Assembly (NCBI GenBank): GCA_019347805.1 | Contig: JAHWKR010000003.1 | Span: 1 to 64,000, forward strand | Length of the DNA: 64,000 nt | Direction of reading: 5' to 3' | DNA from: Methanobacteriota archaeon | Lineage (GTDB): Archaea > Thermoplasmatota > E2 > JACPAO01 > JAHWKR01 | In this document: in pieces, positions 480 through 64,000 of the stretch | How the letters are laid out: each line of letters begins with the position of its first letter | How positions within the stretch are numbered: the first letter of the stretch is position 1 | Made by a program: the position numbers and the translations under genes | The notes under the pieces: model-generated | What the model was told of the DNA's origin: nothing | Database searches by the model: none | The model's input: the letters and a program-made list of their open reading frames with translations, nothing else

Positions 480-1607
480 TCAGATCTTCTTCTTCGTCAC
501 GATGGTCAACACGTCCTGGTCTTCCAAGACGTGGTCCAAAGAGACATGCTGTCCGTCGAACTTGGCGCTCTTGCCCCACACCTGCGCATAGCGGAACAAC
601 TTACGGAACTCGCGGTGCAGGTGGTCGCAGACGTCGCCGACGGTGGAACCGCGCGTGATGACCAGGGGTTCCTCGTAATCGGTCTCGCCTTTGTGCGGGC
701 GGAGGTAGACGCGGATGAAGTCGAGGATCTCGAAGGCGGTGTCCTTGAGGAGGTCCATGTTCATGCCGGTGATGGCGGAGATAGGGACGACGCGGAAGCC
801 CTGCGCGGAGAGTTCCTTGACGTTCTCTTGCAGGTCCTCTTCGGGCAATAGGTCTGACTTGGTGAGCGCGATGAAGCCGCGCGTGTAGACGCGGTTGCCC
901 GCCAGCTTGTCGATGAGCTGGTCGATGGTGATGTCTTCCCGGATGACGATGTTGGCATTGACGACCTTGAACTCGCGGCAGATGTCCTCGATGTAGTCGT
1001 CGTCCATGTTGGTCAGTTCGACCGTCTTGTTGATCTTGAGGCCGCCGCGGTCCGATTTGACGATCTGGATGTCGGCCGGTTTCTGGTTGAGCCGGATGCC
1101 GGCGTCGTAGATCTCGCGCAGGACCACTTCGAGTTCGTTGGGGGAATAGGCGTTGACGGTGATGAAGATGAGGTCGGAACTGCGCGCCGCCGCCAAGACC
1201 TCCTTGCCGCGCCCTTTCCCCGATGCGGCACCCTTGATGATGCCGGGCATGTCAAGGATCTGGATGTTGGCGCCCTTGTACTCCATCGAGCCGGGGATGA
1301 CGTCCAGCGTCGTGAAGGCATAGGCGCCGACCTCCGACTCGGTGCCGGTGAGCTTGTTCATGAGGGTCGATTTACCGACCGAGGGCAACCCGACGAGCCC
1401 GACCGTGGCGTTGCCCGATTTCTTCACCGCGAAGGACTTGCCGCCCCCGCCGCCGCCCATGAGGCGCTGTTTTTCCTGTTCTTGCCGGAGCTTGGCGATC
1501 TTGGCCTTGAGCTTCCCGATGTGGAACTCGGTGGCCTTGTTCTTCTGCGTCTTGAGGATCTCTTCCTCGATCTCCTTGATCTGCTCCGCGATGGTCGCCA
1601 TGGGCAT
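480..1607 (-). CDS. DRG/Rbg1-family GTPase (OBG-HflX superfamily, C-terminal TGS domain)
   Basis: ORF 480..2000(-). The conserved protein begins at internal ATG (cat at 1605-1607): MPMATIAEQIKEIEEEIL...GGGGGGKSF..VGLVGLPSVGKSTLMNKLTG (G1/Walker A), DMPGII (G3), TKSD (G4), C-terminal TGS-like ...DVLTIVTKKKI. This is the archaeal/eukaryal DRG architecture; the 131-aa N-terminal extension in the ORF track is Arg/Pro-rich and overlaps the divergent upstream region. Confidence 0.9.
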   Translation of the reverse strand: MPMATIAEQIKEIEEEILKTQKNKATEFHIGKLKAKIAKLRQEQEKQRLMGGGGGGKSFAVKKSGNATVGLVGLPSVGKSTLMNKLTGTESEVGAYAFTTLDVIPGSMEYKGANIQILDMPGIIKGAASGKGRGKEVLAAARSSDLIFITVNAYSPNELEVVLREIYDAGIRLNQKPADIQIVKSDRGGLKINKTVELTNMDDDYIEDICREFKVVNANIVIREDITIDQLIDKLAGNRVYTRGFIALTKSDLLPEEDLQENVKELSAQGFRVVPISAITGMNMDLLKDTAFEILDFIRVYLRPHKGETDYEEPLVITRGSTVGDVCDHLHREFRKLFRYAQVWGKSAKFDGQHVSLDHVLEDQDVLTIVTKKKI

Positions 1608-1776
1608 CGTGTCCGTACGGACAGGCGGCGGACGGCGGGCGGACGGGTATAAACCCTTCGCGCATAGGCCGCTCCGGCTTCCCTTCCGGGGACCGGCTGA
1701 AATAGGCCGCCGTCGCGGCCGACCCGAGGCGCACTTCGCCCCCACGCTTTTCACGGCGTGCTCGCTCGGCCGCCCC

Positions 1777-3330
1777 GTGGAAGCCGAAGCGCCGGACGGC
1801 ACCGCATCCGCAGGTGTCCTGAGCGGGGCGCCCGCGGTCCGGGCCGAGCGGCTGTCGTTCGGTCCGTCGGGCGGTTCGGGTCCGGTGCCGATCGACCGGT
1901 TGTCCTTCACCGTCGAACCAGGCGAGACGCTCCTCGTCGCAGGGCCTTCGGGGACCGGCAAGAGCATGCTGTTGTCACTCGTCGCCGGGCTCGGGTCCAC
2001 CTATTCCGACCCGCAAGTCGGTGGGCACCTTGTCGTCGCATGGCCGGAAGGTGTCGACCCCGGGCCACTGCCCCGGCCGCGGCCGGGCCGTGTCGGGTTC
2101 CTGCAGCAGGAACCGGGGGACGGTCTTCTCGGTGTCGACCTCCTTTCGGCGCTCGCGTTGCCGCTCGAACTCCTCGGCCTGGGCCGTGACGAGACCGCCG
2201 ACCGGGTCGGACATGCGCTCGAGACGTCCGGTCTCATGGAGATGGCCGAGCGCGAGGTGTCGACGCTCTCGGTCGGAGAACGCAAACGCGCCGCGCTCGC
2301 CGGCATCGAGGCGCTCGACCCTCCCCTTGTGCTCTTGGACGAGCCGCTCGCCGACCTTGACCCGCCCGGCGTGCGGCACCTCCTCGACGACCTTGCGCGC
2401 ATCCACACAGCGCGCACGGTCCTCGTCGCCGAGCACCGCATCGGCCCGCTGCGCGCCCTCGCCGACCGGGAACTCCATCTTGTCCCGAGCGCCGCCAGAC
2501 CTCCTCCACGTATCTGGACCCCTGCCATCGCCCGCGGCCCCGGCGGCGCGGAACCGGCCGTGGTCGCCAACAGCCTCAGTATCGACCGCGGCGGACGGCG
2601 GCTCATCGATGATGCGACGTTCCGGCTTGGGCCGGGTGTGTGGGGACTCCTCGGCCGCAACGGTGCGGGCAAGAGCACCCTGCTTTCGGTGCTCGCCGGT
2701 CTCGTCGCACCGACCTCCGGAGCGGTGACGGTCGCCGGCCGGCCCGTCTGGTCGAGGGGCCTCCGCGTGTCGCGGCGCGAGACGCACGAGGTCGGCCTGC
2801 GGCGGACGTTGCAGGTCTGTTTCCAGGAACCACGCGAGGCGTTCTTCGCCGCGTCGGTGAAGGAGGAGCTCACGGCCCCCATCGAACGGCTCGGACTGCT
2901 GCTCGGCCATCGTGCCCGCAGCAAGGTCGAGAACGGATTGGAGCAAGCAGGATTGACTCATCTTGCCGAGGTGTCGCCGCAACGACTCTCGGGCGGCGAG
3001 GCGCGACGGGTGCAGACCTTGGGCGCCCTCCTCGTCTCCCCGTCGGTGCTCTTCCTGGATGAGCCGACGCACGGATTGGACCCGGTGGCGCGGGACGCCT
3101 TGCGGGCGAACATCGCGGCGTTCGGCCGCGCGGGCGGCGTCGTCATCGTCGCCACGCATGAACCCGCTTTCCTCCCCGCGGGTGCGGAGTGGATCCATCT
3201 GCCGGGCGACGGGCGGGTCATGGTCGGCGACGCGGCACGACCGGGCGAACCGGGACCCGCCAAGGACGGCTACGTCGTCCCGGATCCGCTCGCCCCGGAG
3301 ACCACCGCCCTCCCGGAAGTGCGGCCGTGA
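1777..3330 (+). CDS. ECF-type transporter ATPase, duplicated ABC domains (EcfA1-EcfA2 fusion, CbiO-like)
   Basis: Two Walker A motifs (GPSGTGKS, GRNGAGKS), two signature motifs (LSVGERKRAAL, LSGGEARRVQ), two Walker B motifs (LLDEPLADLD, LFLDEPTHGLD). Start is uncertain: there is no in-frame ATG after the divergent DRG gene, so GTG at 1777 is proposed. The ORF-track start at 1342 lies inside the DRG gene. Confidence 0.8.
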   Translation: MEAEAPDGTASAGVLSGAPAVRAERLSFGPSGGSGPVPIDRLSFTVEPGETLLVAGPSGTGKSMLLSLVAGLGSTYSDPQVGGHLVVAWPEGVDPGPLPRPRPGRVGFLQQEPGDGLLGVDLLSALALPLELLGLGRDETADRVGHALETSGLMEMAEREVSTLSVGERKRAALAGIEALDPPLVLLDEPLADLDPPGVRHLLDDLARIHTARTVLVAEHRIGPLRALADRELHLVPSAARPPPRIWTPAIARGPGGAEPAVVANSLSIDRGGRRLIDDATFRLGPGVWGLLGRNGAGKSTLLSVLAGLVAPTSGAVTVAGRPVWSRGLRVSRRETHEVGLRRTLQVCFQEPREAFFAASVKEELTAPIERLGLLLGHRARSKVENGLEQAGLTHLAEVSPQRLSGGEARRVQTLGALLVSPSVLFLDEPTHGLDPVARDALRANIAAFGRAGGVVIVATHEPAFLPAGAEWIHLPGDGRVMVGDAARPGEPGPAKDGYVVPDPLAPETTALPEVRP

Positions 3331-27749: not shown

Positions 27750-27753
27750 ATGA

Positions 27754-28248
27754 TCAGGTCCTGAGGCTGCGGATGCGGAGGGAGTGGTCTTCTTCGGTGT
27801 GCTTGTCGGACGCGGAGGCGTCCCGTTCGGCCCGGGCACCGGGCGCCTTGGCGGTATCTTCCGCGGCACCGTCTTCGCCGGTCGCCCCTTTCGCCTCTTC
27901 TTCGGCCCGCAGTATGGGCACGTCGGTGAAAAGGTAGGTGCGCATCTCGTGGTCGAACTCGGGACTTCTGCGGCGGATCCATTCCAAGGTCATCATGGCG
28001 TGCTCGATCTCCTCGTCCTTGTTGTGGCGGAGGATCTCGCGCAGCTCGTCGTCCGTGCAGCCGTCCATGCGTTGTTGGTACCAGTCGATGGCCTCGAGCT
28101 CCTCCATGAGGGAGACGATGGCGCGGTGCATCTCGCGCGTTTCGGCGGAGAGGACCTCGTAGGGTTCGTGGTACGTTTCGCTACCGATGGGGTCCACCCC
28201 GTGTCGTTCCCTGTCCGCGCATGTGCAGCGGGTGGCGACGACGGGCAT
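27754..28248 (-). CDS. encapsulated ferritin-like protein (EncFtn/Flp cargo) with C-terminal encapsulin-targeting peptide
   Basis: Ferritin-like di-iron motifs ETREMHRA and EEIEHAMMTLEW. The C-terminal tail ...HSLRIRSLRT matches the LxIxSLK/R cargo-loading peptide. The stop lies 4 nt before the encapsulin start. Confidence 0.75.
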   Translation of the reverse strand: MPVVATRCTCADRERHGVDPIGSETYHEPYEVLSAETREMHRAIVSLMEELEAIDWYQQRMDGCTDDELREILRHNKDEEIEHAMMTLEWIRRRSPEFDHEMRTYLFTDVPILRAEEEAKGATGEDGAAEDTAKAPGARAERDASASDKHTEEDHSLRIRSLRT

Positions 28249-31403: not shown

Positions 31404-32063
31404 TCAGGTGTCAATGTGCCCGCGATGCCAGGCGAGGACCGTGTCGGCGATGTCGCGGTGGTCGTCGATGCGCTCGAAGACGAGATCGGCGGCGTCACGC
31501 ACGGCAGGCCCGGTCGGTTCCACGGCGACGCCGAGGCCGATGTTCTTCCAGACACCGGTGTCGTTCACGTCGTTCCCGATATGGGCGACCCGCCGGGGGT
31601 CGACGTCCTCGCGTTGCAGGAAGGCGTGCAGGTTGCGCCACTTGTCGAAGAGGGGGCGCACTTCCCCGGTCACCACGCCATCGCGGACGACGCCGTGGGA
31701 GGCGATCTGGTCCTCGATGCCGAAGGCGTCGGCGAGGTGCGCGGTGATGAAGTCGGGGTTGTCTGTCAGGACGGCGACGCGCAGTCCGGCCTCCTTGAGC
31801 ATCGAGACGGCGGGTCCGATACCAGGGAACCAGGTGCCCTGCCGGAGCGCCTCGCGCACCTCGCCGACGGTGCGGCCGGCGAGGAAGGCGAACTCGATCT
31901 CGAAGCATTCCTCGAGGGTGATCTCGCCGCTGCGGAAGCGCTTGTCGTGGTGGAGCACCTCTTCCTCGAAGCCGAAATGGCGCGCCACGAGGAGGAACGC
32001 GGTGCCGTCGATGAGCGTTCCGTCGAGGTCGTAGCAGACGAGGTCGAGTCGGCCGTCGGCCAT
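31404..32063 (-). CDS. HAD-superfamily hydrolase (phosphoserine-phosphatase-like subfamily IB)
   Basis: Motif I DLDGTL; motif III/IV ...HIGNDVNDTG. Confidence 0.65.
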   Translation of the reverse strand: MADGRLDLVCYDLDGTLIDGTAFLLVARHFGFEEEVLHHDKRFRSGEITLEECFEIEFAFLAGRTVGEVREALRQGTWFPGIGPAVSMLKEAGLRVAVLTDNPDFITAHLADAFGIEDQIASHGVVRDGVVTGEVRPLFDKWRNLHAFLQREDVDPRRVAHIGNDVNDTGVWKNIGLGVAVEPTGPAVRDAADLVFERIDDHRDIADTVLAWHRGHIDT

Positions 32064-32214
32064 CGGGCCGCCGATGGGGCGGACCATCAGGTGCCTTTCG
32101 GTCCTGTCGTTCGGGTCTCATGTCGCCGTTCCGGGTTCTTCCGGTGCCGATGTCACATACCTGGCGTCGTCCCGACCGGAAGGCATAACGCTTCCGCCGC
32201 GGAATCCTGGTGTC

Positions 32215-32910
32215 ATGGGTCCCGACCGCGGCGTCGAGCCGCTTCCCGTGGTGCTCGTCCACGGCGTTCTCGGTCAGGAGCTCCTCTACTGGAACCTGGT
32301 CCGCGCCCGGCTGGAGACGGAGGGTTTCCAGGTCCTCGAGGCACCGCTTCCCCGCCTGGCCCTGGGTCGGTTGACCGATGCGGGCGTGGCGTTCGGCGAC
32401 ATCATCGACGCGCTCCTGGACGACGTCGGGGCGGAGCAGGTCGACGTCGTCGCCCATAGCGCGGGAGGCCTTGCGGTCCGCCATGCCCTCATGCAGGACG
32501 GGCACCGCGACCGGGTGCGACGGCTCATGACGCTCGGTTCGCCGCACGGCGGCACGCGGCTCGCCCATCTCGTGCCCGGCTTCGGCATCGCCGCGGACGT
32601 GCGGCCGGGCAGTCCGTTCCTGGCGCATTTCCTCGACGACCCGACCCCGGGGCCGACCTGCTACTCGGCGTTCTGGACCCGCTTCGACGGCATCGTCATC
32701 CCGAGCGAACTGGCGCGCCTGCCGTCGGCGCCGAACGTCGAGAACGTCCGGCTCGACCGGGTCAGTCATTGGGGGTATCTCTACAAGCCACGGGTGGCAC
32801 GGGTCTTGGCCGACGAGCTCCGACGCGGCTTCGTGGGCGGGGAGCGGGAGATCGTGAACGGCCTTTTCACACCGCGCTCCGGGACGGGCGCGGACGCGGT
32901 ACCGGCCTGA
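32215..32910 (+). CDS. alpha/beta-hydrolase, lipase/esterase-like
   Basis: VVLVHGVLG, nucleophile elbow AHSAGG, LGSPHGG; resembles small bacterial lipases. Start ATG at 32215. Confidence 0.55.
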   Translation: MGPDRGVEPLPVVLVHGVLGQELLYWNLVRARLETEGFQVLEAPLPRLALGRLTDAGVAFGDIIDALLDDVGAEQVDVVAHSAGGLAVRHALMQDGHRDRVRRLMTLGSPHGGTRLAHLVPGFGIAADVRPGSPFLAHFLDDPTPGPTCYSAFWTRFDGIVIPSELARLPSAPNVENVRLDRVSHWGYLYKPRVARVLADELRRGFVGGEREIVNGLFTPRSGTGADAVPA

Positions 32911-32985
32911 GAATGGCCTTGCAGCCGTCCGGTTGCCCACGTGGAACACCTATCTACGAGACTACCGTGCGCCGTCGTGACGCAC

Positions 32986-34866
32986 ATGGGTGCGGTCGGA
33001 GGTACTTGTTTGCGACGGATAGCGGTCATCTTACTGTCAGGCCTGTTGGCGATCACATTCTTCCCGACCCAGGGTTCCGCCCATGAGGGCGCCTTCCCGG
33101 TCGTCCTCCTTCATGGTTGGACGGGCGATGGCGACTCGTTCCGTGAGATGGTGCCGAAACTGGAGGCGCAGGGGCTCGCCGTCCTCGATTTCGACCCGGC
33201 GACCGCCGGGACCCAGGCGCTCAGCTACGGACCGATGGCGGCAGGTCAGCATGTCTCCTACATCGCGGGAAAGGTCGTGGAGGAGGCGATCCTGGACGCG
33301 CTCGCGGCGGCCGGTTATCCGGCGGACCAGAAGGTCGACGTCATCGCGCACAGCATGGGCGGTCTCGTGGCGCGGTTCCTCATCGAGCAGCCGGGTGCCG
33401 ACGTCGACCATTGGTCCGCCTCGAGCGGCTGGTACGGGGACGGGACCCCGGATGTCCGCTCCGATTGGGCGGCGCGCGTGGACGACCTCATCATGACCGG
33501 GACGCCGAACCATGGCACCTGGGAAGCGTGGGTGCCGAGCACGATCGGCGGCTTCGGTGACTGGAACGCGGCAGGTTCCGACATGGTGCCGGGGAGCACG
33601 TTCCTCGAGCGCATGGGCTACGCGGCGCCCTCCGGCGAGCACTATCATGCCATCGGCGGGGACCCGGCCTACCTGAACTTCCTCAAGTGGGACTACGACG
33701 GCGACGGGTTCTCCCGCGGGTTCGATGGTGTCGTCCCGGCCGAATCACCCTACGTCACGGGTGCGACGATCGACTACGTGGACGGCCATCATGGCGCGCT
33801 GCTTTCGGACGACGACGCGCTCGACCTCATCATCGAGTTCCTCGGACAGACGAGCGTCGTCGACGGGATCGGTGGCGCGTCCCTTGCCGGGGACGCCGTC
33901 GTCCGGCTCGAGTACCTCGATGTCGTGCAGGACCACGACGGCGGTTCGTCCGACGAGATGGTCGTGGACGTCTATGTCGATGCGGACGGATCCTTGGGAC
34001 CCGCTGGTTACACGAACGCGGGCCGGCACACGTTCTCCAAGGACGGTCCGTTCACGGTCGACTGGGGGGACACCGGTCCCACCTTCGCATCGGTCAAGGT
34101 CCCCGGTACGTCGCCCCTTCTGGATGTCAAGGTCGTGGTCCTGGAGGACGACACCTCGTGGGGTGGCGGCTACGAGGCCGTCTCGACGCACTACGTCACG
34201 AACATCCTCCTGTCGGAGGACATCGACGGCATGGATTTCTATGCCAAGGGGGCGACCGACTCGAAAGGCGGCACGAACACGGTGCGCGTCAGCGTCAACG
34301 GCGTGACAAGCGACGTCGGCGAGACGCGCGCGGTCGAACTCGGCCTCGAGAGATCCTACGTGAAGGACGACCACGACTGGGGCAAGGGCGAGGTGACCTA
34401 CTACCTGAACGCGGGCCGCGTCGGCTACACCTCGCAATACAGCCGGGGTGAGATCGGGGGCACCCACTATTCGCGTGACTCAGGGAGCTGGGTCGACATC
34501 GGGTCGCACAGCAAGAACGACGGCACCGTCGAGGCGGAGCTGGTGTGGTCGGGACGCATGCTGGAGGACGCGACGCTGCGCTTCGACGTGACCTATTGGG
34601 AGGACGATGGTGGTTGGAGCGGTGCGGACGGCGGCAACATGTACTACCTGGAAAAGTCGCTCGCACAGTTGTCTGACGGCACGTCGCGCTACAAGGGCAC
34701 GAGCCTGTCGGATTACGACGTCTACATCTCCGTCGTGAAGTACGGTCCCGGGGAATCGCCTGCGCTCCAGATGGTGGAGGAGATGGACGCTGTGGAGAAC
34801 CCTGTCGGTCTCCTGCCCGACGGTCCGGATGACCCACCGTTCGGACCGATGGACCCGCCGCTCTGA
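32986..34866 (+). CDS. secreted alpha/beta-hydrolase (lipase-like) with large C-terminal beta-rich domain
   Basis: Signal peptide, VVLLHGWTGDG, nucleophile elbow AHSMGG, then a ~400-aa Asp/Gly/Thr-rich C-terminal region. Confidence 0.55.
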   Translation: MGAVGGTCLRRIAVILLSGLLAITFFPTQGSAHEGAFPVVLLHGWTGDGDSFREMVPKLEAQGLAVLDFDPATAGTQALSYGPMAAGQHVSYIAGKVVEEAILDALAAAGYPADQKVDVIAHSMGGLVARFLIEQPGADVDHWSASSGWYGDGTPDVRSDWAARVDDLIMTGTPNHGTWEAWVPSTIGGFGDWNAAGSDMVPGSTFLERMGYAAPSGEHYHAIGGDPAYLNFLKWDYDGDGFSRGFDGVVPAESPYVTGATIDYVDGHHGALLSDDDALDLIIEFLGQTSVVDGIGGASLAGDAVVRLEYLDVVQDHDGGSSDEMVVDVYVDADGSLGPAGYTNAGRHTFSKDGPFTVDWGDTGPTFASVKVPGTSPLLDVKVVVLEDDTSWGGGYEAVSTHYVTNILLSEDIDGMDFYAKGATDSKGGTNTVRVSVNGVTSDVGETRAVELGLERSYVKDDHDWGKGEVTYYLNAGRVGYTSQYSRGEIGGTHYSRDSGSWVDIGSHSKNDGTVEAELVWSGRMLEDATLRFDVTYWEDDGGWSGADGGNMYYLEKSLAQLSDGTSRYKGTSLSDYDVYISVVKYGPGESPALQMVEEMDAVENPVGLLPDGPDDPPFGPMDPPL

Positions 34867-34957
34867 GACCGACCTCCTCTCTTCCCCTTTCTCTCTCCTC
34901 TGCTCCTCTTTTCAGACCGCTCTCACGCCTTCTGTTCCGTGAGAAACGGAAAATCGC

Positions 34958-35830
34958 TCACAGGAACGGGTGTCCCCGCACCGAGAGCAGCCGTTGCAGT
35001 TCGTATTGGATGGCGGCGCGTACCCGGTCGTTCTCGCGATGGACGCGCTCGCTGTCCGCGGTGGCCTTCGGGTCCTTGCCGAGCTCGATGGGCTCGAGGA
35101 AGCTGATGCGCCATTTGGCGGGGCGCGGGAAGAAGTTGACCGGCATGGGGAGCGACAGGTCAAGAAGCTCCTCGTACGAGTCGATGCGCGCGCTCGAGGG
35201 GTTCGCCTCTTCGCCGCCGACGATGGCCACCGGGACGATGGGGGCGCCGGTCTCGAGCGCGACGCGGATGTAGCCGCGCGCGAAATCCTGCAAGAGGTAG
35301 CGTTCGTTCTGTCCTTTGAAGGCGCCGCGTTCGCCCTCGGGGAAGATGAGGATCGCTTCGCCGCGCTCGAGGAGCGTCCGCATGGTGTCCTTGCCGACCT
35401 CGAAGAGGCCCAATCGGGCGGCGAGGTCGCCGATCTGGGGTCTGCGGAACCAGGTCTTGTGGGCCAGTCCGCGCACGAAGCGCCCGCGGGCGTCCTTCAT
35501 GGCGAGCGCGGTGTAGGCGTAGTCGAGGCCGGTCCATCCGGTGTGGTTGGCGGCGAGGATGACGGGGCCGTCCGGCACACGCTCGATGCCTTCGACCTCG
35601 AGCCGGCTGTAGAGACGCAGGAGCTTGAAGAGCGGTGTGATGCGCGAGACGAAGGAGGGGTCGAGGCGGTCGTCGAGGTCGACCTCCCGGGTCGGCGAGG
35701 GCGTCTCGGGGCGTTCCGCTTGGTCGTGCGAGGTGGGAACGTGGGATGGGGCTCCGGTGGGCGTGCCGTTGGCACCGGGACGGGGCCGGTCCCGCGCCTT
35801 CGTCGCCTGCCTGCCTTCTGTCTTCTCCAT
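34958..35830 (-). CDS. PlsC-family acyltransferase (1-acyl-sn-glycerol-3-phosphate acyltransferase-like)
   Basis: Acyltransferase motif I NHTGWTGLD (HxxxxD) and motif III FPEGERG. ATG at 35830. Confidence 0.65.
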   Translation of the reverse strand: MEKTEGRQATKARDRPRPGANGTPTGAPSHVPTSHDQAERPETPSPTREVDLDDRLDPSFVSRITPLFKLLRLYSRLEVEGIERVPDGPVILAANHTGWTGLDYAYTALAMKDARGRFVRGLAHKTWFRRPQIGDLAARLGLFEVGKDTMRTLLERGEAILIFPEGERGAFKGQNERYLLQDFARGYIRVALETGAPIVPVAIVGGEEANPSSARIDSYEELLDLSLPMPVNFFPRPAKWRISFLEPIELGKDPKATADSERVHRENDRVRAAIQYELQRLLSVRGHPFL

Positions 35831-35920: not shown

Positions 35921-36841
35921 ATGGGTGAAACATGTCATATAGGTGGCCGCGGGAAATCCACCCGCGTGGTCCCAGGCGCCCCCAGGCGCACCTGGACCTT
36001 CCTGGCGTTCGCCGTCGTCGCGTCGATGCTGCTTTTCGCGGTCGGTCCGGCTTTTGCGGGGAACCATCAGGACAAGGGCCAGGGACGGTTCCGTGTCGAT
36101 GCCTTCACCGAGGTGCAGGTGACCGACGGGACCATCTCTCCGATCACAGTGGATCCCACCACCTCCGATCCCGGTCCTCGTGCGTTCGACAACATGGACC
36201 GGTTCCGTTTCAACACGCGCTACACGAACACGCGTCACGTCCTGTTCCTCGATGTACCGTCGGCGCAGACCGGCCAAGGGGCGTCGAGCCTCACCGTCCA
36301 GGGGGTCTCGCACCAGGTCGCGGATTGGATCCACATCCGGCAAGGCGGCGCCAGCGCGTTCGTGACGGTCGAACGCCAAGGGGTGTACGACAGTGATGCG
36401 GTTTCCTACACGGCACCAGGTGGGGCCACGCAGTCGAGCCAGGGTACGGTGGTCTTCAGGTCCTACGACAAGACGTCACCGAGCGATGGTGGGACGACGA
36501 GCACATGGTACTGGATCTATGATGCGGGACAGAACCGCTACTGGTTCGACCCCACGGACAAGGACTTCACCAACGGGAACGGTGAGGTGAGCGTCTGGCC
36601 GATCTCGAAATCGTCGGCGACCCACTACGTGTTCACCCATGGGACGAACACCTTCGGGGTGTCGGGTGTGGCGGGTTCGGCGACGGACTATGTCCCCACG
36701 GTCCGGCTCGGTTGGTTGGACCGCCCGGGACCGGGTGGGGGGCATGACCACGACGCCTATGTCCTCGTCGATTTTGCGAGCGGAACGCCTGCGGACACCT
36801 ATTCATACTCGGTACAGGGGACGATCTATGACACGGTGTAG
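35921..36841 (+). CDS. secreted protein, tandem paralog A of an uncharacterised family
   Basis: Signal RRTWTFLAFAVVASMLLFAVGPAFAG; mature protein is Thr/Ser/Gly/Tyr/Trp-rich and shares conserved blocks with the next two genes: V(Q/S)VTD.TI...T..P.TSDPGP, TNGNGE, DYVPT, AYVL(V/I)DF(A/P)SGTPADTY. Confidence 0.5.
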   Translation: MGETCHIGGRGKSTRVVPGAPRRTWTFLAFAVVASMLLFAVGPAFAGNHQDKGQGRFRVDAFTEVQVTDGTISPITVDPTTSDPGPRAFDNMDRFRFNTRYTNTRHVLFLDVPSAQTGQGASSLTVQGVSHQVADWIHIRQGGASAFVTVERQGVYDSDAVSYTAPGGATQSSQGTVVFRSYDKTSPSDGGTTSTWYWIYDAGQNRYWFDPTDKDFTNGNGEVSVWPISKSSATHYVFTHGTNTFGVSGVAGSATDYVPTVRLGWLDRPGPGGGHDHDAYVLVDFASGTPADTYSYSVQGTIYDTV

Positions 36842-37673
36842 GGAGACCCCTCTTGTCGTATCCAGACGGCGCAGGGCGCGCCCGACGCGGTGGAGCCGGA
36901 TCGCCATCGTCTTCCTTTTCCTGTTGCCGTTGTCGGCCTCACCGGGTCTGGCATTGCTCGATGTCTCTGTGACGGACGCGACCGTCGCGCAGGTGACCGC
37001 GACACCGACATCGAGCGACCCGGGCCCGGTCCTCCATTCCGCGGCGGACGGGCTCGAGTTCTCGAGCGGCCTGACGGATATCGCCGCGGCGTGGTATGCC
37101 GAATACTCGCTGGTGACGAACAACACGTCCGCCCAGGGCGCGACCGTCCAAGGCGTATCCCATACCTTCGCGGACTGGTTCTATGCCAAGCAGGACGACA
37201 ATCCGAAGTATTCGACGATGAACGTCACCGGGGTGTACGACGCGGACGCCGCGGCCTACACCGTGCCGTTGCTGTTCACCAAGTCGTCCCAAGGTACCCT
37301 CGCGCTGCGTTGGTACAACGGCACTTCCCCCACGTCTGGTGGGACGGATGTGACGATGTATTGGGCCTATGACGCGGTGGAGAACAAGTATGTCATCGGC
37401 GCCTCGAAGGACCTGTCCCTCGAGACCCAGGTCGCGCCGATCACGGCGACGCTCCAGACGACCTATGAGCGAACGATCCAAGGCAACGACTATATCGTGA
37501 AAAGCGTCGCCGCCGCCGGCTCCGATTATGTCCCCACCCTCATGCAGGGCCACCATCTGCCGCTCGTCTCCTTGCCACTCAGCCACACCTGGTATCCGCT
37601 CATGGACCCGCCGCCCGGCGTCCTGCAGGACGATTACGACTTCACGCTCCGCGTCACCGTGGTGGCGATCTGA
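36828..37673 (+). CDS. secreted protein, tandem paralog B
   Basis: Start ATG at 36828 overlaps paralog A by 14 nt. Signal RRRRARPTRWSRIAIVFLFLLPLSASPGLA; same blocks (SVTDATVAQVTATPTSSDPGP...). Confidence 0.5.
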   Translation: MTRCRETPLVVSRRRRARPTRWSRIAIVFLFLLPLSASPGLALLDVSVTDATVAQVTATPTSSDPGPVLHSAADGLEFSSGLTDIAAAWYAEYSLVTNNTSAQGATVQGVSHTFADWFYAKQDDNPKYSTMNVTGVYDADAAAYTVPLLFTKSSQGTLALRWYNGTSPTSGGTDVTMYWAYDAVENKYVIGASKDLSLETQVAPITATLQTTYERTIQGNDYIVKSVAAAGSDYVPTLMQGHHLPLVSLPLSHTWYPLMDPPPGVLQDDYDFTLRVTVVAI

Positions 37674-37913: not shown

Positions 37914-38828
37914 ATGCACACCAAAAACGGCGTCGAACGGTCCTGCCGTCGCCTTTTCTCATCGCCCAAGAGCAGCTTGACGTTCCTCATGGCCCTCGCC
38001 ATCGCCTTCGGGCTGGCCCTCGCTCCGGCGACCCATGCGGCGACGAGTGGTACCGGGACGGTCTCGGCCACGGTGGGTAAGTTCGTCGAACTGTCCGTGA
38101 CGGACGCCACGATCGCCGCGTTCAGCGCCAGTCCGACCTCGAGCGACCCCGGGCCGGTGGTCAAGGACAACACCGACCATTTCCGTTTCTCGAACGTCTT
38201 CTCGAACACGCGCGCGATGTTCAGCATGGACATCACCTCCGCGACGGACGGTTCCGCATCCGCGACGAAGACGATCCAGGGCACGACACACACCATCGCC
38301 GATTGGGTCTACCTGCGCCAGGACGCGAACCAGAAGTATGGCACCTATGAGACGACCGGCGTCTACGACGCCTCCGCCGCCTCCTATACTGCGCCCGGTG
38401 GTTTCACCAAGGACTCCCAAGGGACCTTCCAGATCAAGACCTACGACAAGGACAGCCCCACCGACGGCGGCGACAGCACGATCACGGTCAACTGGATCTA
38501 TGAATCGGCTGGCAACCGCTACTATTTCGACGCCGTCGACAAGGACTTCACGAACGGCAACGGCGAGGCCCAGGTCAATCCGTCCTCGAAGACGGACCAG
38601 GCTTCGGGATACACCTACACCGCAGGGACCAACGCTTATGGTGTCACTTCGGTCGCGAACTCGGGCAGCAATTATGTGCCGACCGTGCGCATGGCGTGGC
38701 AGGTCGACTATTCGACCGCGGCGTCCGTCACGAAGGATGCCTACGTGCTCATCGATTTCCCGAGCGGCACTCCGGCGGACACCTACAGCATCACCTTGAC
38801 CGCCACGGTCACGCAGTTGACGTCGTGA
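37914..38828 (+). CDS. secreted protein, tandem paralog C
   Basis: Start ATG at 37914; signal LTFLMALAIAFGLALAPATHAA; blocks SVTDATIAAFSASPTSSDPGP, TNGNGEAQV, NYVPTVRM, AYVLIDFPSGTPADTYSITL. Preceded by the TATA-like motif at 37837. Confidence 0.5.
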   Translation: MHTKNGVERSCRRLFSSPKSSLTFLMALAIAFGLALAPATHAATSGTGTVSATVGKFVELSVTDATIAAFSASPTSSDPGPVVKDNTDHFRFSNVFSNTRAMFSMDITSATDGSASATKTIQGTTHTIADWVYLRQDANQKYGTYETTGVYDASAASYTAPGGFTKDSQGTFQIKTYDKDSPTDGGDSTITVNWIYESAGNRYYFDAVDKDFTNGNGEAQVNPSSKTDQASGYTYTAGTNAYGVTSVANSGSNYVPTVRMAWQVDYSTAASVTKDAYVLIDFPSGTPADTYSITLTATVTQLTS

Positions 38829-45750: not shown

Positions 45751-46446
45751 ATGCCCGCCTATCCCGACCACGGCACGTTGGCGAAGGCGCACCTTCTCGC
45801 TTTGTTGTTCTTCATCGTGGTGGCGGCGGACGTGACCCTCGGGGGTCCGCTCCAGTCGACGGATCCGAAGGTGACGGCGTGGGCCTTGGAGGTGACCGAT
45901 GAGGGTTCCCGCGCCTTCGCCCGTGGTGTTTTGGCGGCCCCGGGACACACCGAGGTGGCGCTCGTCCTCCTGGGGATGGGGGTCGGCTTCTGTCTCTGGT
46001 TGGGCGTGTCGCGCAACGCCTGGTTCATGCTTTTTCCGGCGGTCGCGGGCATGCTCCTGATCCCGGCCTTGAAATTGGCGTTCCATCGTGCACGGCCGTC
46101 GACGATCATCGATACGGGGGCCTTCCCGTCGGGCCATGTCTTGAAGGCGGTCTTCGTCACCGGTCTCGTCTTCGCTTTGTCGTGGGACGCGTTCGTCCGG
46201 CGGAAAAAGGGCTTCGTGGGGGTCGAGCCGAGACCTTGGTGGCCGCGGCTCCTGGTCGGACTCTGGCTCTTCGGCGCGCTCATCACCATCCTCGGCCGCG
46301 TGCTCGGTCTCGTCCATTGGTGGACCGACACGTTGGGCGGAGCGCTCCTGGGGCTCGTCATGCTCACCGGCACGTTGTTCCTGCATGCGACGCTCCCTGA
46401 GACGGCGCGCGAGGCGGAGACGGACGAACTCGTCACCGGGCGTTGA
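45751..46446 (+). CDS. PAP2-family membrane phosphatase (phosphatidic acid/undecaprenyl-PP phosphatase-like)
   Basis: Three PAP2 motifs: KLAFHRARP (KxxxxxxRP), PSGH, GRVLGLVHWWTD (SRxxxxxHxxxD-like). Confidence 0.7.
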   Translation: MPAYPDHGTLAKAHLLALLFFIVVAADVTLGGPLQSTDPKVTAWALEVTDEGSRAFARGVLAAPGHTEVALVLLGMGVGFCLWLGVSRNAWFMLFPAVAGMLLIPALKLAFHRARPSTIIDTGAFPSGHVLKAVFVTGLVFALSWDAFVRRKKGFVGVEPRPWWPRLLVGLWLFGALITILGRVLGLVHWWTDTLGGALLGLVMLTGTLFLHATLPETAREAETDELVTGR

Positions 46447-54037: not shown

Positions 54038-54088
54038 GGCCCCCGGACCCGAAACGGCTTCAGCCTCTTCCCCTTGCCGCGCCGCAGG

Positions 54089-61598: not shown

Positions 61599-62798
61599 GT
61601 GGTCGTGCAGGTGCTCCGCAGCGTCGCGTTCGTATGTCTTGTCTTGATGTCCTCGGCCTTCGTCGCCGCGCCTTCTGGGGCGCACCTCGGCAACGACAAG
61701 GACCTGGACGACCTGGATCGCCTTCAGGGCGAGGATTACTCCACTCCGGACGCGGTGTGCGACCCGGCGGCCACGGATCACACCTATACCATGGTGCACG
61801 AAGGCGAGTGGGGGGTCCATATGCCCTATTCCGGTTGCGGCGTGACCTATGACACGGTGACGTTCGACGGTGACGCGAAGCCGACCTGGTTCCGGGTGGC
61901 ACGCAACAACGTCGATCCGCTCATCATCGAGCTTCGCGTGTTCGTCGCCGATCGCCTGGTCGCCCGGGGGGAGTTCCAAGGTTTCCAGTCGGGGGATTCG
62001 CCCCTTCTTCTCTACGGCTTCGCGGAATCGTCGACCATCGCGGCGGGGACGTACGAGGTGCGCATCGAGTACGAGGTCGTACGCGGGCCGCTGTGGCACA
62101 CGCTCTTCCTTGATTATGTGCAATGGGAAGTGGAGAACCCCTGCAAGAACGCCGCCCTGCCACCGCCCTCGCCCGAGGCGAACGGTGCGGGTGTCGACCG
62201 CAAGACCGGCTGGCGCGACCATGTCTACACGTTCTCGCTCGAGGCGTACAAGGACCCGGAAGGGGACCCGCTGACGTTCCAGTGGGTGTGGGACGACGGG
62301 GTCGTGCAGGAGGGCCGCATCGCCGTGCGCGCGTTCCAGGAGACCGGTCTCCGGACGGTGACGATCACGGTGTCCGACGACCCCATCGCCCGCTGCATCG
62401 ACGGCTCGCCGCGCGTCACGCAAGGGGCTTACGGCTTCACGGTCGTGTCGGAGGCATGGTCGACGTCGTGGAACGATCCCGACCCTGGCAACAGCTGCAT
62501 CAACATGGTGCAGGTGCGTTCGGCGACCCCCTATGACGTCATCGCCGGGTTGTGCCGGCTGCGCGGCTCGGTGACGGTCACACCGCTCGTCTCCAAGAGC
62601 GACGTGCGGGCGCAGTTCCGTCTCGACGGCTGGCCCTATGTGGGTGCCAGCTTCGGCACGGAAGCGGAACGGCTCTACATCTCACCGCTCGTCACGACCC
62701 AGTTCCACACCCTGGACGTCTGTTTCCGCCTCGTCTGGGACGTCTACGAGAGGGAGTACTGCTCGGAGGAGTACGTCTTCCTGAACGTCGGCCTCTAG
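61599..62798 (+). CDS. secreted single-module paralog of the giant repeat protein
   Basis: Same domain order: N-domain (CDPAATDHTY...WFRVARNNVDPLIIELRVFVADRLVARG), PKD-like (GWRDHVYTFSLEAYKDPEGDPLTFQWVWDDG...VSDDPIARC), Cys-rich end (...REYCSEEYVFLNVGL). Start at GTG 61599 or 61605 gives a signal peptide. Confidence 0.5.
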   Translation: MVVQVLRSVAFVCLVLMSSAFVAAPSGAHLGNDKDLDDLDRLQGEDYSTPDAVCDPAATDHTYTMVHEGEWGVHMPYSGCGVTYDTVTFDGDAKPTWFRVARNNVDPLIIELRVFVADRLVARGEFQGFQSGDSPLLLYGFAESSTIAAGTYEVRIEYEVVRGPLWHTLFLDYVQWEVENPCKNAALPPPSPEANGAGVDRKTGWRDHVYTFSLEAYKDPEGDPLTFQWVWDDGVVQEGRIAVRAFQETGLRTVTITVSDDPIARCIDGSPRVTQGAYGFTVVSEAWSTSWNDPDPGNSCINMVQVRSATPYDVIAGLCRLRGSVTVTPLVSKSDVRAQFRLDGWPYVGASFGTEAERLYISPLVTTQFHTLDVCFRLVWDVYEREYCSEEYVFLNVGL

Positions 62799-64000
62799 GC
62801 GGTATAGCGGATGTCCGCGCCGTCTGTCTGTGCGCGTGCGAGGAAGGGAGCGGCGACGTCGGAGCCTGTGGCGAGCCCTTGCCGGGTCTCGTGAGGGAGC
62901 GTGGTCCCGGCGTAGAGGCGGGCGTCGACGATATCGTCACGGATCGACGCCATGGCGTCGGCCTCGCCGGGGAAGAACCAGGCGACGGTGGTGGTGAGCG
63001 CACCGAACAGACAGCCGTGGCCGCCGGACCAGGCGGGTGTGGACGGCGTCGACATGAGCGGTTCCCACTGGGGGTCCCATAGACGCTGGATCGTGGTGAC
63101 AGGGCGTTCGCGCCAATAGGTGTACTTGGCGTCCCAGCAGGCGATGCCGGCATCGGTCACCGCGCCGGCGACGCTGGCGAGCACGCGTTGCGCGTGCATG
63201 CCGGTGAGTTCGTGGTCGATGACCGCGGCGAGCGCGATGCCGATGGCCCGACCGGGCGGGAGCTCGGTCCACGGTCCGAGGTCCCACTTCTCGGCGAGGG
63301 CGACCTGTGCGGGAGTGAGCGTCCGGGACGTGTTCCAGAGGTGTTCCAGTGCGGCGAGATGCTCGGCCCCCTCACATGCTGGAGGCGGCGGGACAAGATA
63401 GCTGGATGCATCGTCCAGAAGGAGGGGCCGGACGTCGCCCCAGACGACGTCGTCAGGTGGCTTGTAGGCGGGTGGGGTCTCTTCCCAGGCGCAGGGTACG
63501 ATGTCCGGGTCGGGACGTCCGGCCCCGTCCCAGATGGCGAGCGAACCGTCACCGGCGCGCATGTCGAGCACCTTGCGGCCGACGGCCGCGCCGAGGGCGT
63601 AGCCGGCGTCGACGTCGCTGCGGTAGTTGGCGCCTGCGACGAGGCGCGATTCGAGCGCGAGGGCGAGGATCTCCTCGGTGGTGCCGTTCGGTGTCACCTT
63701 GCCGGGGAAGAACTGGTCGAGGAGGAAAGCGGCGGCTCCGGCGGCCGCGGCGTGCTCGCTCGGGTAGGAGGGCACGTCGCGCTCGCGGACAAGCGGGCGC
63801 AATGTCGGGTCGATGTGGTAGGGGGCCGGCCGGAGGTGGCAATACTTGTGTTGCCAGGTGAGCACCATGGCGTCATGGATGGCGGTCTCGAGGATCCCGA
63901 GCATGTAGGCCATCCGGGGCGGGGTGCTCGTCTCGCGCAGGCTGAAGAGCCGGATCACCTCGATGGCCTTCTCGGTCCAGAAGCGGCCCGCGACGCCGTC
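62795..64000 (-). CDS. PAP2-superfamily protein, vanadium-haloperoxidase/acid-phosphatase-like (partial, N-terminus beyond window)
   Basis: PSYPSEHAAAAGAAAF (PAP2 PSGH-type motif), ...SGGHG..., large helical domain. The frame stays open to the window edge; the ORF-track M at 63958 is an internal GTG. Confidence 0.55.
   Translation of the reverse strand, partial: DGVAGRFWTEKAIEVIRLFSLRETSTPPRMAYMLGILETAIHDAMVLTWQHKYCHLRPAPYHIDPTLRPLVRERDVPSYPSEHAAAAGAAAFLLDQFFPGKVTPNGTTEEILALALESRLVAGANYRSDVDAGYALGAAVGRKVLDMRAGDGSLAIWDGAGRPDPDIVPCAWEETPPAYKPPDDVVWGDVRPLLLDDASSYLVPPPPACEGAEHLAALEHLWNTSRTLTPAQVALAEKWDLGPWTELPPGRAIGIALAAVIDHELTGMHAQRVLASVAGAVTDAGIACWDAKYTYWRERPVTTIQRLWDPQWEPLMSTPSTPAWSGGHGCLFGALTTTVAWFFPGEADAMASIRDDIVDARLYAGTTLPHETRQGLATGSDVAAPFLARAQTDGADIRYTA

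Follow-up and report, generated by a model that had tools for sequence, protein, structure and literature searches.

An acyltransferase gene and lip1, a gene for a small serine esterase, form the sole broadly conserved pair of a lipid gene set previously proposed for the window, the whole stretch of 64,000 nucleotides analyzed here. With middling confidence, we regard these genes as the conserved core, a two-gene acyl-ester turnover pair at a genuine Thermoplasmatota locus. A preliminary description had placed them in an ester-lipid gene set with a second lipase (lip2), a HAD phosphatase, and two PAP2 phosphatases. All of the named genes exist at or next to where it put them, with Pfam E-values far beyond chance and in agreement with public gene calls. 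As a set, the acyltransferase-lip1 pair was retained, while lip2, HAD, and both PAP2 genes were not.

Archaeal origin of the locus

The window is part of a 106.8-kb contig from an uncultured soil or groundwater archaeon of the Thermoplasmatota, and the source MAG is labelled "Euryarchaeota archaeon" in NCBI. The contig contains a gene for a DRG/Rbg-family GTPase (480..2000, minus strand; Pfam MMR_HSR1_Xtn and TGS), which matches yeast Rbg1 and Rbg2 with E-values of 1.5e-93 and 4e-81, versus 5e-17 for bacterial Obg. This family is an archaeal/eukaryotic-type marker, and its presence supports an archaeal origin. GC content is even along the whole window. Relatives of the acyltransferase gene were found on Thermoplasmatota contigs, and their loci include aRF1 and aIF-2B-family genes. 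The same gene order (RNase R, Ig-domain genes, a trio of paralogues, acyltransferase, lip1, HAD) was found in locus L044, assembled independently from another sample, and from the paralogue trio onward in locus L045. Many secreted or envelope proteins are encoded around the acyltransferase locus.

A bacterial, chimeric, or mis-binned contig would make these genes ordinary bacterial lipid genes. Such an origin could be suggested by the 50-57% identity of lip2 to Acidimicrobiia proteins, by the bacterial-type PEPC and RNase R also encoded in the window, and by the bacterial labels of two related MAGs. However, both loci of these MAGs nest inside the archaeal clade of the acyltransferase, and the GTPase gene, the uniform GC content, the recurring gene order, and the archaeal genes at related loci leave this reading largely refuted and extremely improbable. 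The archaeal assignment made in the preliminary description thus holds.

Acyltransferase

The acyltransferase gene (34958..35830, minus strand) encodes a protein of 290 aa (MBW3581728.1, named "acyltransferase family protein" in NCBI) that matches PF01553 with an E-value of 1.2e-18 (67.6 bits versus a cut-off of 23). Its catalytic motif NHTGWTGLD spans residues 95-103 (N95, H96, G98, D103), and motif III, FPEGERG, spans residues 163-169. The spacing is NHx6D, versus the canonical NHx4D, with an invariant Gly where the canonical Asp stands. D103 (H+7) is invariant and sits at a helix N-terminus, so a catalytic role for this residue can be inferred. The Arg of the FPEGTR motif, which we take to be phosphate-binding in AGPAT motifs, corresponds to a position that is variable in this clade, where R, K, H, Q, S, D, and A all occur. 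The approximately 55 N-terminal residues are disordered. The C-terminal extension of about 80 aa is family-specific, with P228, P235, and K239 invariant and W240 invariant within the archaeal clade. No membrane-spanning segment was predicted by a hydropathy scan.

All NCBIfam matches were far under their cut-offs, including the AGPAT model TIGR00530 (34.1 bits versus 103); the best was the Aas model, with an E-value of 1.1e-9. The DAGAT family PF03982 matches residues 126-206 above its gathering cut-off (26.7 bits versus 22), and this match is also precomputed for many homologues, but it spans only 85 of 297 profile positions in a region common to all LPLATs, and the HPHG motif of DGAT2 is not present. 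In the confident AF2 model (pLDDT 85), the top Foldseek match was Thermotoga maritima PlsC (5KYM; E 3.7e-8, TM 0.59; 17-18% identity in structural alignment). The same entry was the best PDB sequence match for the acyltransferase family profile (E 6e-6). All significant PDB neighbours are lipid acyltransferases: T. maritima PlsC, PatA, GPAT, and LpxM. The protein is thus a member of the LPLAT superfamily of lipid acyltransferases, in line with the preliminary description. Its more specific assignment as a PlsC or lysophospholipid acyltransferase was not upheld: judged by sequence, the protein is not demonstrable as a PlsC because of the NHx6D spacing, the unconserved motif-III Arg, and the score far under the AGPAT cut-off.

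About 100 homologues were found at E < 1e-45. All informative names among them are Thermoplasmatota or Methanobacteriota archaeon, and one is labelled just "bacterium". Past these homologues, scores drop to bacterial-like relatives. The acyltransferase forms a Thermoplasmatota clade, to which the bacterial-like relatives that were sampled are 36-41% identical. The gene was found in 39 GTDB loci, all but two with archaeal labels. The clade diverges deeply, with 41-92% identity between the loci compared; its MAGs are high in GC (60-73%) and, to judge by the names of isolates and by titles, seem to come from soil, groundwater, and sand.

Archaeal PlsC homologues as such are already known, including those of Thermoplasmata-related archaea. 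They were found in metagenome bins of Marine Group II/III, Asgard, and DPANN archaea (Villanueva et al., 2017, as cited in PMC6431249 and PMC6962369), and both the homologues and the speculation on mixed membranes have been under discussion since 2017.

lip1 and its pairing with the acyltransferase

The lip1 gene (32215..32910, plus strand) encodes a LipA-type serine esterase/lipase of 231 aa with an AHSAGG nucleophile elbow and a triad (S82, D158, H185) that is invariant across the lip1 family. No signal peptide was apparent in a hydropathy scan, and the protein is therefore predicted to be intracellular. Its PDB homologues are a Streptomyces secreted lipase (5H6B, E 3.8e-13) and Bacillus LipA/EstA (1e-8 to 1e-10). 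Both lipases of the window score just under the Lipase_2 gathering score of 20.3 (17.6 and 19.5), and one lip1 orthologue clears it (28.7). The alpha/beta hydrolases are thus homologues of true lipases, in line with the preliminary description. Weak Pfam matches to PGAP1 (GPI inositol deacylase) and palmitoyl-thioesterase were found in lip1 orthologues.

Convergent (tail-to-tail) lip1 genes at most 300 bp from the acyltransferase gene were found in 21 of the 37 related loci whose downstream DNA extends for 900 bp or more. In the subclade of the window, lip1 lies within 2 kb of the acyltransferase gene in 23 of 29 informative loci; in the deeper subclades, it was found near the gene in none of 7 loci. 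The two genes are often 0-76 bp apart; in both L044 and L045, a single bp separates them. By a clear margin, lip1 is the most often conserved neighbour, and the adjacency is still seen between loci whose acyltransferases are only about 41% identical, although all other surroundings change. Pairwise distances of the two genes correlate (Mantel r = 0.71; 0 of 2000 permutations as high); vertically inherited genes co-diverge anyway, so this correlation is no proof of a functional link. Convergent genes are not co-transcribed, and the pair is no operon.

Other partly conserved neighbours are an ACS-like AMP-forming ligase (14 loci), TrpE (8), a family with no Pfam match (8), and HisIE. Since the housekeeping neighbours TrpE and HisIE are also partly conserved, the pairing may partly reflect inherited gene order. 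The ligase, which is absent from the window, resembles short-chain (acetate/acetoacetate) rather than long-chain ligases. An MFS transporter is adjacent in one relative only, and no glycosyltransferase was found among the conserved neighbours.

lip2 and the phosphatases

The lip2 gene (33010..34866, plus strand; alternative ATG at 32986) encodes a secreted lipase of 618 aa, recognized by its AHSMGG elbow and by Pfam. Its N-terminus has a hydrophobic signal segment containing RR, and about 330 extra C-terminal residues follow the alpha/beta-hydrolase domain. In the AF2 model (pLDDT 80), this part forms two beta-sandwich domains of C2-like type, one at about residues 293-433 and one at about 439-600, with Foldseek matches to E-Syt2 C2A-C2B, cPLA2-delta, and ITCH C2. 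Thermoplasmatota homologues share 59-68% identity with lip2, and those of Acidimicrobiia/Actinomycetota share 50-57% along the full length. In the closest relatives (L002, L044, and L045), lip2 is not found between the acyltransferase gene and lip1. By these identities, an NJ tree, and the gene order of the relatives, lip2 is a lineage-specific insertion of actinobacterial type. Its absence from this junction and its similarity to Acidimicrobiia proteins indicate that it was probably transferred, apparently from actinobacteria.

The HAD-IB family phosphatase gene (31404..32087, minus strand) encodes a SerB-like protein of 227 aa (PF00702, E 3.8e-15; TIGR01488, 56.6 bits versus a cut-off of 45; SerB equivalog, 67 versus 144). 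It is divergent from lip1, lies just beyond the span that the preliminary description assigned to the set, and is adjacent in L002, L044, and L045 only; no specific lipid link was found for it. PAP2a (45751..46446, plus strand; PF01569, E 3e-12) is an integral-membrane phosphatase of 231 aa with about six membrane-spanning segments in a hydropathy scan. Its gene is located directly downstream of an RNase R-like gene, and all 39 related loci lack a homologue of it. PAP2b (62795..64000; PF01569, E 1.4e-9) is a soluble acid-phosphatase or haloperoxidase-like protein with weak VCPO_N, PhoC, and SepP matches and no membrane-spanning segment predicted by hydropathy. Its position agrees with the preliminary description, with the corrections that it is encoded on the minus strand and that the gene, incomplete here, runs past the window end. 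PAP2a is 10 kb and PAP2b 27 kb away from the acyltransferase gene, and PAP2 never co-occurs with it in related loci. We read the PAP2 genes as unrelated bystanders and HAD as a local neighbour.

Proposed function and alternatives

The pair would consist of a peripheral (non-transmembrane) O-acyltransferase and a cytoplasmic esterase. With the invariant His96 and a likely relay partner in Asp103, the acyltransferase would transfer a fatty acyl group to the hydroxyl of a lipid acceptor; acyl-CoA is the most plausible donor, and a lyso-glycerolipid is the leading candidate acceptor. Lip1, through Ser82/Asp158/His185, would hydrolyze such esters, and together the two may form an acylation/deacylation cycle for remodelling or turnover. 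Which way acyl groups would flow, and whether the pair affects membrane composition at all, are likewise matters of inference. The 64-kb window contains no gene for an acyl-activating enzyme or a GPAT, and none for fatty-acid synthesis or beta-oxidation. Lip2, inserted in the pair, may free fatty acids from external lipids, with its two C2-like domains possibly binding lipid surfaces.

A bona fide PlsC (LPA acyltransferase) would make diacyl or chimeric ether/ester phosphatidic acid for mixed membranes, with the lipases, HAD, and PAP2 in one pathway. PF01553 and the T. maritima PlsC matches agree with this, bacterial PlsC accepts both LPA stereoforms (PMC13400652), so that an archaeal-backbone lyso-lipid is conceivable, and chimeric lipids were proposed for MGII archaea (PMC6962369). 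We nevertheless find it doubtful, given the TIGR00530 score, the altered motifs, the lack of PlsY, PlsX, PlsB, and GpsA in the window, and HAD and PAP2 genes that are no conserved partners; archaeal PlsC/PlsY homologues were also considered unlikely to act in membrane synthesis (Coleman et al., in PMC6431249). The adjacency might instead be meaningless, with the acyltransferase, lip1, lip2, and HAD independent and kept together by slow rearrangement in one lineage. The convergent orientation, the other partly conserved neighbours, and the deeper subclades lacking adjacent lip1 fit such a history, which is unlikely in view of the frequency, persistence, and tight spacing of the lip1 adjacency and of products that both act on acyl esters.

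A DGAT2/MGAT-like enzyme would produce storage or neutral lipid (acylglycerol or wax-type ester), to be mobilized by lip1. It would explain the DAGAT match, the unconserved motif-III Arg (as expected with a phosphate-free acceptor), and a cytoplasmic partner with homology to true triacylglycerol lipases. It is decidedly unlikely given the shortness of that match, the missing HPHG motif, and the lack of a predicted membrane-spanning segment; moreover, we know of no report of neutral-lipid storage in archaea. Finally, the acceptor could be a glycolipid, lipoglycan, or other envelope molecule, with a PatA-like or lipid A late-acyltransferase-like enzyme and lip1 as deacylase. PatA and LpxM among the structural neighbours, the PGAP1 and palmitoyl-thioesterase matches, and the envelope proteins around the locus point that way. 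Yet T. maritima PlsC matches better in both sequence and structure, such weak matches are usual for any small GxSxG hydrolase, and glycosyltransferases are not among the conserved neighbours, which makes this very unlikely.

Comparison with known systems

The acyltransferase shares PF01553, the fold, the catalytic His after a conserved Asn, and the FPEG and GxP(I/V)VP blocks with T. maritima PlsC. It differs in the Hx6D spacing with Gly at the canonical Asp site, the unconserved motif-III Arg, the C-terminal extension, and the low overall identity. Like the homologues of MGII/III, Asgard, and DPANN archaea, as described in PMC6431249 and PMC6962369, it is a PF01553-type protein of uncultured archaea known from metagenomes only. 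It shares with them the inferred bacterial affinities and the speculation on mixed membranes and chimeric lipids, and with those of MGII/III also the Thermoplasmata lineage. By description, it differs from them in its high-GC MAGs, which seem to stem from soil, groundwater, and sand rather than marine plankton, its own deep clade, and its conserved esterase partner.

Lip1 and lip2 resemble Bacillus LipA/EstA and the small Streptomyces lipases (family I.4 / Lipase_2) in the A-H-S-x-G-G elbow and the minimal alpha/beta fold, and lip1 also in sequence (E 4e-13 to 1e-8) and the Ser/Asp/His triad. In contrast to these lipases, lip1 has no signal peptide, lip2 has two extra C2-like domains, and both score just below the family threshold. 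The proposed pair would follow the logic of lysophospholipid re-acylation by Escherichia coli Aas/LplT, the Lands cycle, and cardiolipin remodelling by the lipase Cld1 with tafazzin, where acyl chains are remodelled by a PF01553 acyltransferase together with a hydrolase that deacylates. Among NCBIfam models, that of Aas gave the best match, and the AMP-forming ligase beside the gene in 14 relatives echoes the fusion of acyltransferase and acyl-ACP synthetase in Aas. Unlike Aas, the acyltransferase of the window is unfused and the ligase of its relatives resembles short-chain types; unlike Aas/LplT, an MFS transporter neighbour is confined to one relative. The likeness to Aas/LplT, the Lands cycle, and cardiolipin remodelling is a functional analogy only, rather than membership in these systems.

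Genes of the Region

Genes were confirmed by a GC3-based ORF screen, Pfam and NCBIfam scans, and the public annotation of identical proteins. All three sources bore out the existence of every gene named in the preliminary description, where a PlsC-like acyltransferase, two lipases, a HAD phosphatase, and two PAP2 phosphatases had been presented as a bacterial-type ester-lipid gene set in an apparent archaeon. The acyltransferase gene (34958-35830, minus strand) encodes a protein of 290 aa with a PF01553 domain (E 1.2e-18; 67.6 bits vs. a cut-off of 23) and the motifs NHTGWTGLD and FPEGERG. Two genes for alpha/beta hydrolases are located on the plus strand: lip1 (32215-32910; 231 aa), having an AHSAGG elbow, and lip2 (33010-34866; 618 aa), having an AHSMGG elbow, an N-terminal hydrophobic segment, and about 330 extra C-terminal residues. 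Catalytic residues are intact in all three enzymes. The 91-bp spacer between the convergent stop codons of lip2 and the acyltransferase gene contains a short hairpin, ttccgtgagaaacggaa (34934-34950), which may be a terminator shared by both genes.

The HAD phosphatase (31404-32087, minus strand; 227 aa; PF00702, E 3.8e-15) belongs to the HAD-IB subfamily (TIGR01488, 56.6 bits vs. a cut-off of 45) but is not a SerB equivalog (TIGR00338, 67 vs. a cut-off of 144). The two PAP2 phosphatases are PAP2a (45751-46446, plus strand; 231 aa; PF01569, E 3e-12), with about six membrane-spanning segments by hydropathy, and PAP2b (62795-64000, minus strand; PF01569, E 1.4e-9), a partial gene that runs past the end of the window and has no membrane-spanning segment. 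Lipid specificity is not inferable for these two proteins. PAP2a directly follows a large gene for an RNase R/RNB-family exoribonuclease (42868-45708, plus strand). In two related loci, L008 and L044, the RNase R gene is again found in synteny with the region of the acyltransferase.

The suggestion of many secreted proteins fits the gene content. A protein of 521 aa without Pfam matches (28351-29916, plus strand) has a lipobox-like N-terminus (MRAPTLAVLLVSVLFAGC...), and several genes nearby likewise code for secreted proteins (PKD, Ig-like, BNR, LVIVD, and galactose-oxidase-like). Three tandem paralogs on the plus strand (35921-36841, 36828-37673, and 37959-38828) encode proteins of about 280-306 aa with 37-47% mutual identity, each with one N-terminal hydrophobic segment and none with a Pfam match. 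In L044 and L045, the corresponding position just upstream of the acyltransferase gene is taken by a row of three genes that lack annotation and are alike in size and orientation.

Archaeal Origin of the Contig

The genome is archaeal, as had been assumed, and four lines of evidence agree on this, so a bacterial origin of the contig can be set aside. Proteins of the window are identical to MBW3581725/26/28, which belong to an NCBI MAG labeled "Euryarchaeota archaeon" and are encoded on a contig of 106,839 bp. The contig also encodes a DRG/Rbg-type GTPase (Pfam MMR_HSR1_Xtn and TGS) that matches yeast Rbg1 (E 1.5e-93) and Rbg2 (E 4e-81) far better than bacterial Obg (5e-17). The DRG/Rbg family is archaeal and eukaryotic.

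Related acyltransferase loci were collected from one genome per GTDB species with a narrow alignment, A2, biased toward sequences with ANHTGW(L/T)GL and GGEE(A/S)NP. In total, 39 loci were found, and all but two have titles referring to Thermoplasmata, Thermoplasmatota, Methanobacteriota, or "uncultured Halobacteriales/Thermoplasmatales" archaea. The two exceptions, a "Proteobacteria bacterium" (L035, JAJPHT010000026.1) and a "bacterium" (L039, JAZJZE010000009.1), nest inside the archaeal clade, their acyltransferases clustering with those of Thermoplasmatota; the taxonomic labels of both MAGs are probably wrong or uninformative. In L039, lip1 adjoins the acyltransferase gene. Archaeal-type marker genes were also found in related loci: L028 carries aRF1, and both L031 and L032 carry genes of the aIF-2B family. 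Finally, L044, from another sample and an independent assembly, has the same gene order as the window (RNase R, Ig-domain genes, three paralogous secreted proteins, acyltransferase, lip1, HAD), and L045 shares this order from the paralog trio onward.

The window also contains genes of other kinds. The phosphoenolpyruvate carboxylase, PEPC, encoded at 54038-56722 (plus strand) is of the bacterial type (PF00311, 1035 bits) rather than the archaeal type (PF14010) and may be another gene of bacterial affinity in this archaeon. A family 1 encapsulin shell gene (NF041155, 296 bits) and an adjacent gene for an EncFtn-like ferritin cargo are present at 26943-28248 (minus strand) on this archaeal contig. 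They are located roughly where L044 has a gene of the fatty-acid hydroxylase superfamily (PF04116; 13749-14453 of L044, plus strand), about 5 kb from its acyltransferase gene. GC content is even along the window (about 60-72%); tRNA genes were searched for and none was found in the window, and rRNA and ribosomal protein genes are likewise absent from these 64 kb.

Family and Motifs of the Acyltransferase

About 100 database homologs were found at E < 1e-45; all informative names among them refer to Thermoplasmatota or Methanobacteriota archaea, one sequence being named just "bacterium." Below these, scores drop to bacterial-like relatives, sampled at 36-41% identity, and the contig of one such relative also encodes the NAD-dependent DNA ligase LigA. 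Sequence-cluster look-ups aimed at marine (Poseidoniales) members yielded no informative names. The preliminary description had left the choice between bacterial horizontal transfer and an archaeal clade to phylogeny. In a midpoint-rooted NJ tree, all archaeal acyltransferases form one clade, apart from the bacterial-like relatives. All the archaeal loci are high-GC (60-73%).

The AF2 model of the acyltransferase (pLDDT 85, core above 90) contains a disordered, variable N-terminal leader of about 55 aa followed by a long helix (residues 58-74); no membrane-spanning segment was found by a hydropathy scan. In a Foldseek search of the PDB, the significant neighbors of the model were lipid acyltransferases only, with PlsC of Thermotoga maritima (TmPlsC, 5KYM) at the top, followed by PatA, GPATs, and LpxM. 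The match to 5KYM (E 3.7e-8; TM 0.59, normalized to the target) indicates a PlsC-like fold for the modeled protein.

Motif I of the acyltransferase reads N95-H96-T-G-W-T-G-L-D103, that is Hx6D, and the canonical NHX4D spacing is absent. The pattern N95-H96-x-G98-x4-D103 is present in 37 of 37 aligned sequences, bacterial-like relatives included, with D103 invariant throughout. The position of the canonical HX4D aspartate is taken by G101, which is invariant within the archaeal clade. In motif III (FPEGERG), residues F163, P164, and E165 are invariant. The conserved Arg of the AGPAT motif III, FPEGTR, binds phosphate; its equivalent in the protein of the window is R168, and over the clade this position varies among R, K, H, Q, S, D, and A. 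The curated AGPAT model TIGR00530 (AGP_acyltrn) scores 34.1 bits vs. a cut-off of 102.95, and the best NCBIfam match, the Aas model, is far under its threshold. Because of the Hx6D spacing, the Gly at the Asp position, the variable motif III residue, and the low AGPAT score, the protein is not demonstrably a PlsC. Thus, of the earlier identification as PlsC-like, the PF01553 domain and the PlsC-like fold stand, but the NHX4D spacing and the TIGR00530 score do not support it, and the annotation "PlsC" is not justified.

Membership in the DGAT2/MGAT group was considered and seems unlikely. Enzymes of that group have an HPHG motif and an N-terminal membrane-spanning hairpin. At 26.7 bits, the DAGAT model (PF03982) passes its cut-off of 22, yet only the shared central blocks are matched (profile positions 106-190 of 297), and a full-length match is lacking; moreover, ANHTGW replaces HPHG and the membrane-spanning segment is absent. 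We conclude that the protein is a putative O-acyltransferase of the LPLAT (lipid acyltransferase) superfamily that looks active.

Genomic Context of the Acyltransferase

Three methods, tblastn, a profile search for lip1, and ORF clustering, were used to compare gene neighborhoods among the 39 loci. An ortholog of lip1 was found in convergent orientation immediately downstream (0-300 bp) of the acyltransferase gene in 21 of the 37 loci whose downstream DNA extends for 900 bp or more; in L013, the two genes are 1.8 kb apart. Mapping onto the tree placed lip1 at a distance of up to 2 kb in 23 of the 29 informative loci of the large subclade that includes the window (L013 and the window counted), and near the acyltransferase gene in none of the 7 loci of the deeper subclades. 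Among the closest relatives, at 70-74% identity, the stop codons of both genes are separated by 1 bp. Pairwise distances of the acyltransferase and lip1 are correlated (r = 0.71; none of 2000 permutations gave a value that high), which fits co-inheritance.

The product of lip1 is homologous to true lipases with solved structures, including a secreted Streptomyces lipase (5H6B, E 3.8e-13) and Bacillus LipA/EstA (1e-10 to 1e-8). Residues S82, D158, and H185 are invariant across 20 orthologs, and no signal peptide is apparent in lip1 of the window or in its orthologs. Both lip1 and lip2 carry the A-H-S-x-G-G nucleophile elbow of LipA-type (family I.4) lipases. Relative to the Pfam Lipase_2 gathering score of 20.3, lip1 scores 17.6, lip2 19.5, and the lip1 ortholog in L003 28.7. 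The conserved partner of the acyltransferase is lip1, and the conservation of a hydrolase partner points to active acylation/deacylation rather than to a decaying horizontally acquired gene.

The remaining members of the proposed set fared differently. The HAD gene adjoins the acyltransferase region only in L002, L044, and L045, the loci closest to the window, no PAP2 homologs were found in any of the 39 related loci, and lip2 is an insertion. Thus, the pairing with lip1 is the conserved part of the set; there is no ground for assigning the HAD and PAP2 genes to the pathway, and an ester-lipid set of five to six genes is for the most part a coincidence.

Other neighbors are more restricted. 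A gene for an AMP-binding enzyme resembling acetate/acetoacetate-CoA ligases is divergently oriented upstream of the acyltransferase gene in 14 loci (L004, L005, L008-L010, L012, L014, L015, L017, L018, L020, L023, L024, and L029). This protein of about 650 aa contains an ACAS_N domain; the models that match it best, those for acetoacetate/acetate-CoA ligases, score far below their cut-offs, and no homolog was found in the window. A role as a conserved fatty-acid activator was rejected for this ligase, as it is confined to a single sub-subclade and the enzymes it resembles are short-chain ligases. TrpE is located near the acyltransferase gene in 8 loci, as is an unannotated family. An MFS transporter, considered as a conserved LplT-like partner, was seen in L043 only. 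The UbiA-family protein (8509-9369, minus strand), considered as a DGGGP synthase, is MqnP-like instead, and therefore no ether-lipid gene is present in the window. Together with UbiD (15699-17192, minus strand), a futalosine-pathway decarboxylase of the SCO4490 type (TIGR03701, 625 bits), it belongs to the futalosine pathway of menaquinone synthesis.

Predicted Secreted Lipase lip2

In L002, L044, and L045, lip2 is missing from the junction between the acyltransferase gene and lip1, from which it follows that it was inserted in the lineage of the window; no convincing flanking repeats or mobile-element scars were found around it. Homologs of lip2 in Thermoplasmatota MAGs are 59-68% identical. 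Full-length homologs are numerous in Acidimicrobiia and other Actinomycetota (50-57% identical), and shorter forms of about 435 aa, without the last domain, were found in other bacteria, one named Frankiales. In an NJ tree, the archaeal sequences group in a single clade that lies among the actinobacterial ones, and transfer from bacteria to archaea is the parsimonious reading.

In the AF2 model (pLDDT 80), the alpha/beta hydrolase is followed by two all-beta domains. By Foldseek, the latter resemble C2 domains, including E-Syt2 C2A-C2B, cPLA2-delta, ferlins, copine BON1, and ITCH C2, with TM of 0.5-0.7 for single-domain C2 targets; bacterial and fungal lipases are also matched, with significance at the level of fold only. 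Among the invariant positions of the C2-like domains are several acidic residues, which would be compatible with Ca2+-dependent attachment to lipid surfaces. The hydrophobic segment is preceded by an Arg-Arg pair that is also part of the family consensus, making export by Tat or Sec likely. For an archaeal genome, lip2 is a clear case of a bacterial-type, predicted secreted lipase equipped with C2-like, putatively lipid-binding domains.

Proposed Function

The acyltransferase would transfer a fatty acyl group to a lipid hydroxyl. The donor would most plausibly be acyl-CoA, because archaea, to our knowledge, generally lack ACP. The ester formed could be reversed or edited inside the cell by lip1, and lip2 might free fatty acids from external lipids. 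Genes for PlsY/PlsX, PlsB, and G3P supply were not found within the 64-kb window. Remodeling of lyso-glycerolipids is favored over de novo synthesis of phosphatidic acid, on account of the deviant motifs, the lack of a first-step acyltransferase nearby, and the hydrolase partner. A neutral lipid or a glycoconjugate is a candidate for the acceptor instead. Since bacterial PlsC takes both LPA stereoforms (PMC13400652), an acceptor with an archaeal backbone stays conceivable.

Nothing here shows ester-lipid synthesis by this archaeon. It seems rather doubtful that a whole clade of high-GC terrestrial Thermoplasmatota has kept, by vertical descent, a dedicated module for acyl-ester lipids, made up of the NHx6D LPLAT and a cognate intracellular lipase, with which it really makes and turns over fatty-acyl ester lipids. 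If it has, these might be neutral storage lipids or chimeric ether/ester phospholipids with the archaeal lyso-intermediate as their base, and the clade would be a natural exception to the lipid divide with a defined genetic basis. The earlier interpretation as a whole is partly supported: the genes and the archaeal host stand, but synteny does not bear out the full gene set, nor do the motifs bear out the PlsC identity.

Comparison with Known Archaeal Homologs

Whether fatty acids are esterified into the lipids of any archaeon matters for the "lipid divide" as well as for models of the origin of eukaryotic membranes, and archaeal homologs of PlsC have been invoked in this context since 2017. 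Homologs of PlsC and PlsY in Thermoplasmata-related MGII/III, Asgard, and DPANN bins, as well as the proposal that membranes might be chimeric or mixed, are attributed to Villanueva et al. (2017) in the accounts of PMC6962369 and PMC6431249. According to Coleman et al. (PMC6431249), all such archaeal sequences come from metagenome bins only, transfer from Bacteria was inferred, and a role in membrane phospholipid synthesis was judged unlikely. In a 2022 review, the function of archaeal PlsC/PlsY homologs remains to be elucidated (PMC9385802). A limited literature search gave no mention of the Hx6D variant or of a pairing between this acyltransferase and a lipase, and nothing relevant on acyltransferases or lipases of Thermoplasmatota. 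The acyltransferase and its partner hydrolase, two small soluble proteins, would be easy to express and assay for this open question. Archaeal LPLAT/"PlsC" homologs have thus already been discussed, and the acyltransferase is a well-delimited addition to them: the locus contributes an orthologous group that is well defined, specific to Thermoplasmatota, and intact in its catalytic residues. Modestly new are the conserved esterase partner and the variant motif, with a predicted secreted C2-domain lipase of probable bacterial origin as a side finding.
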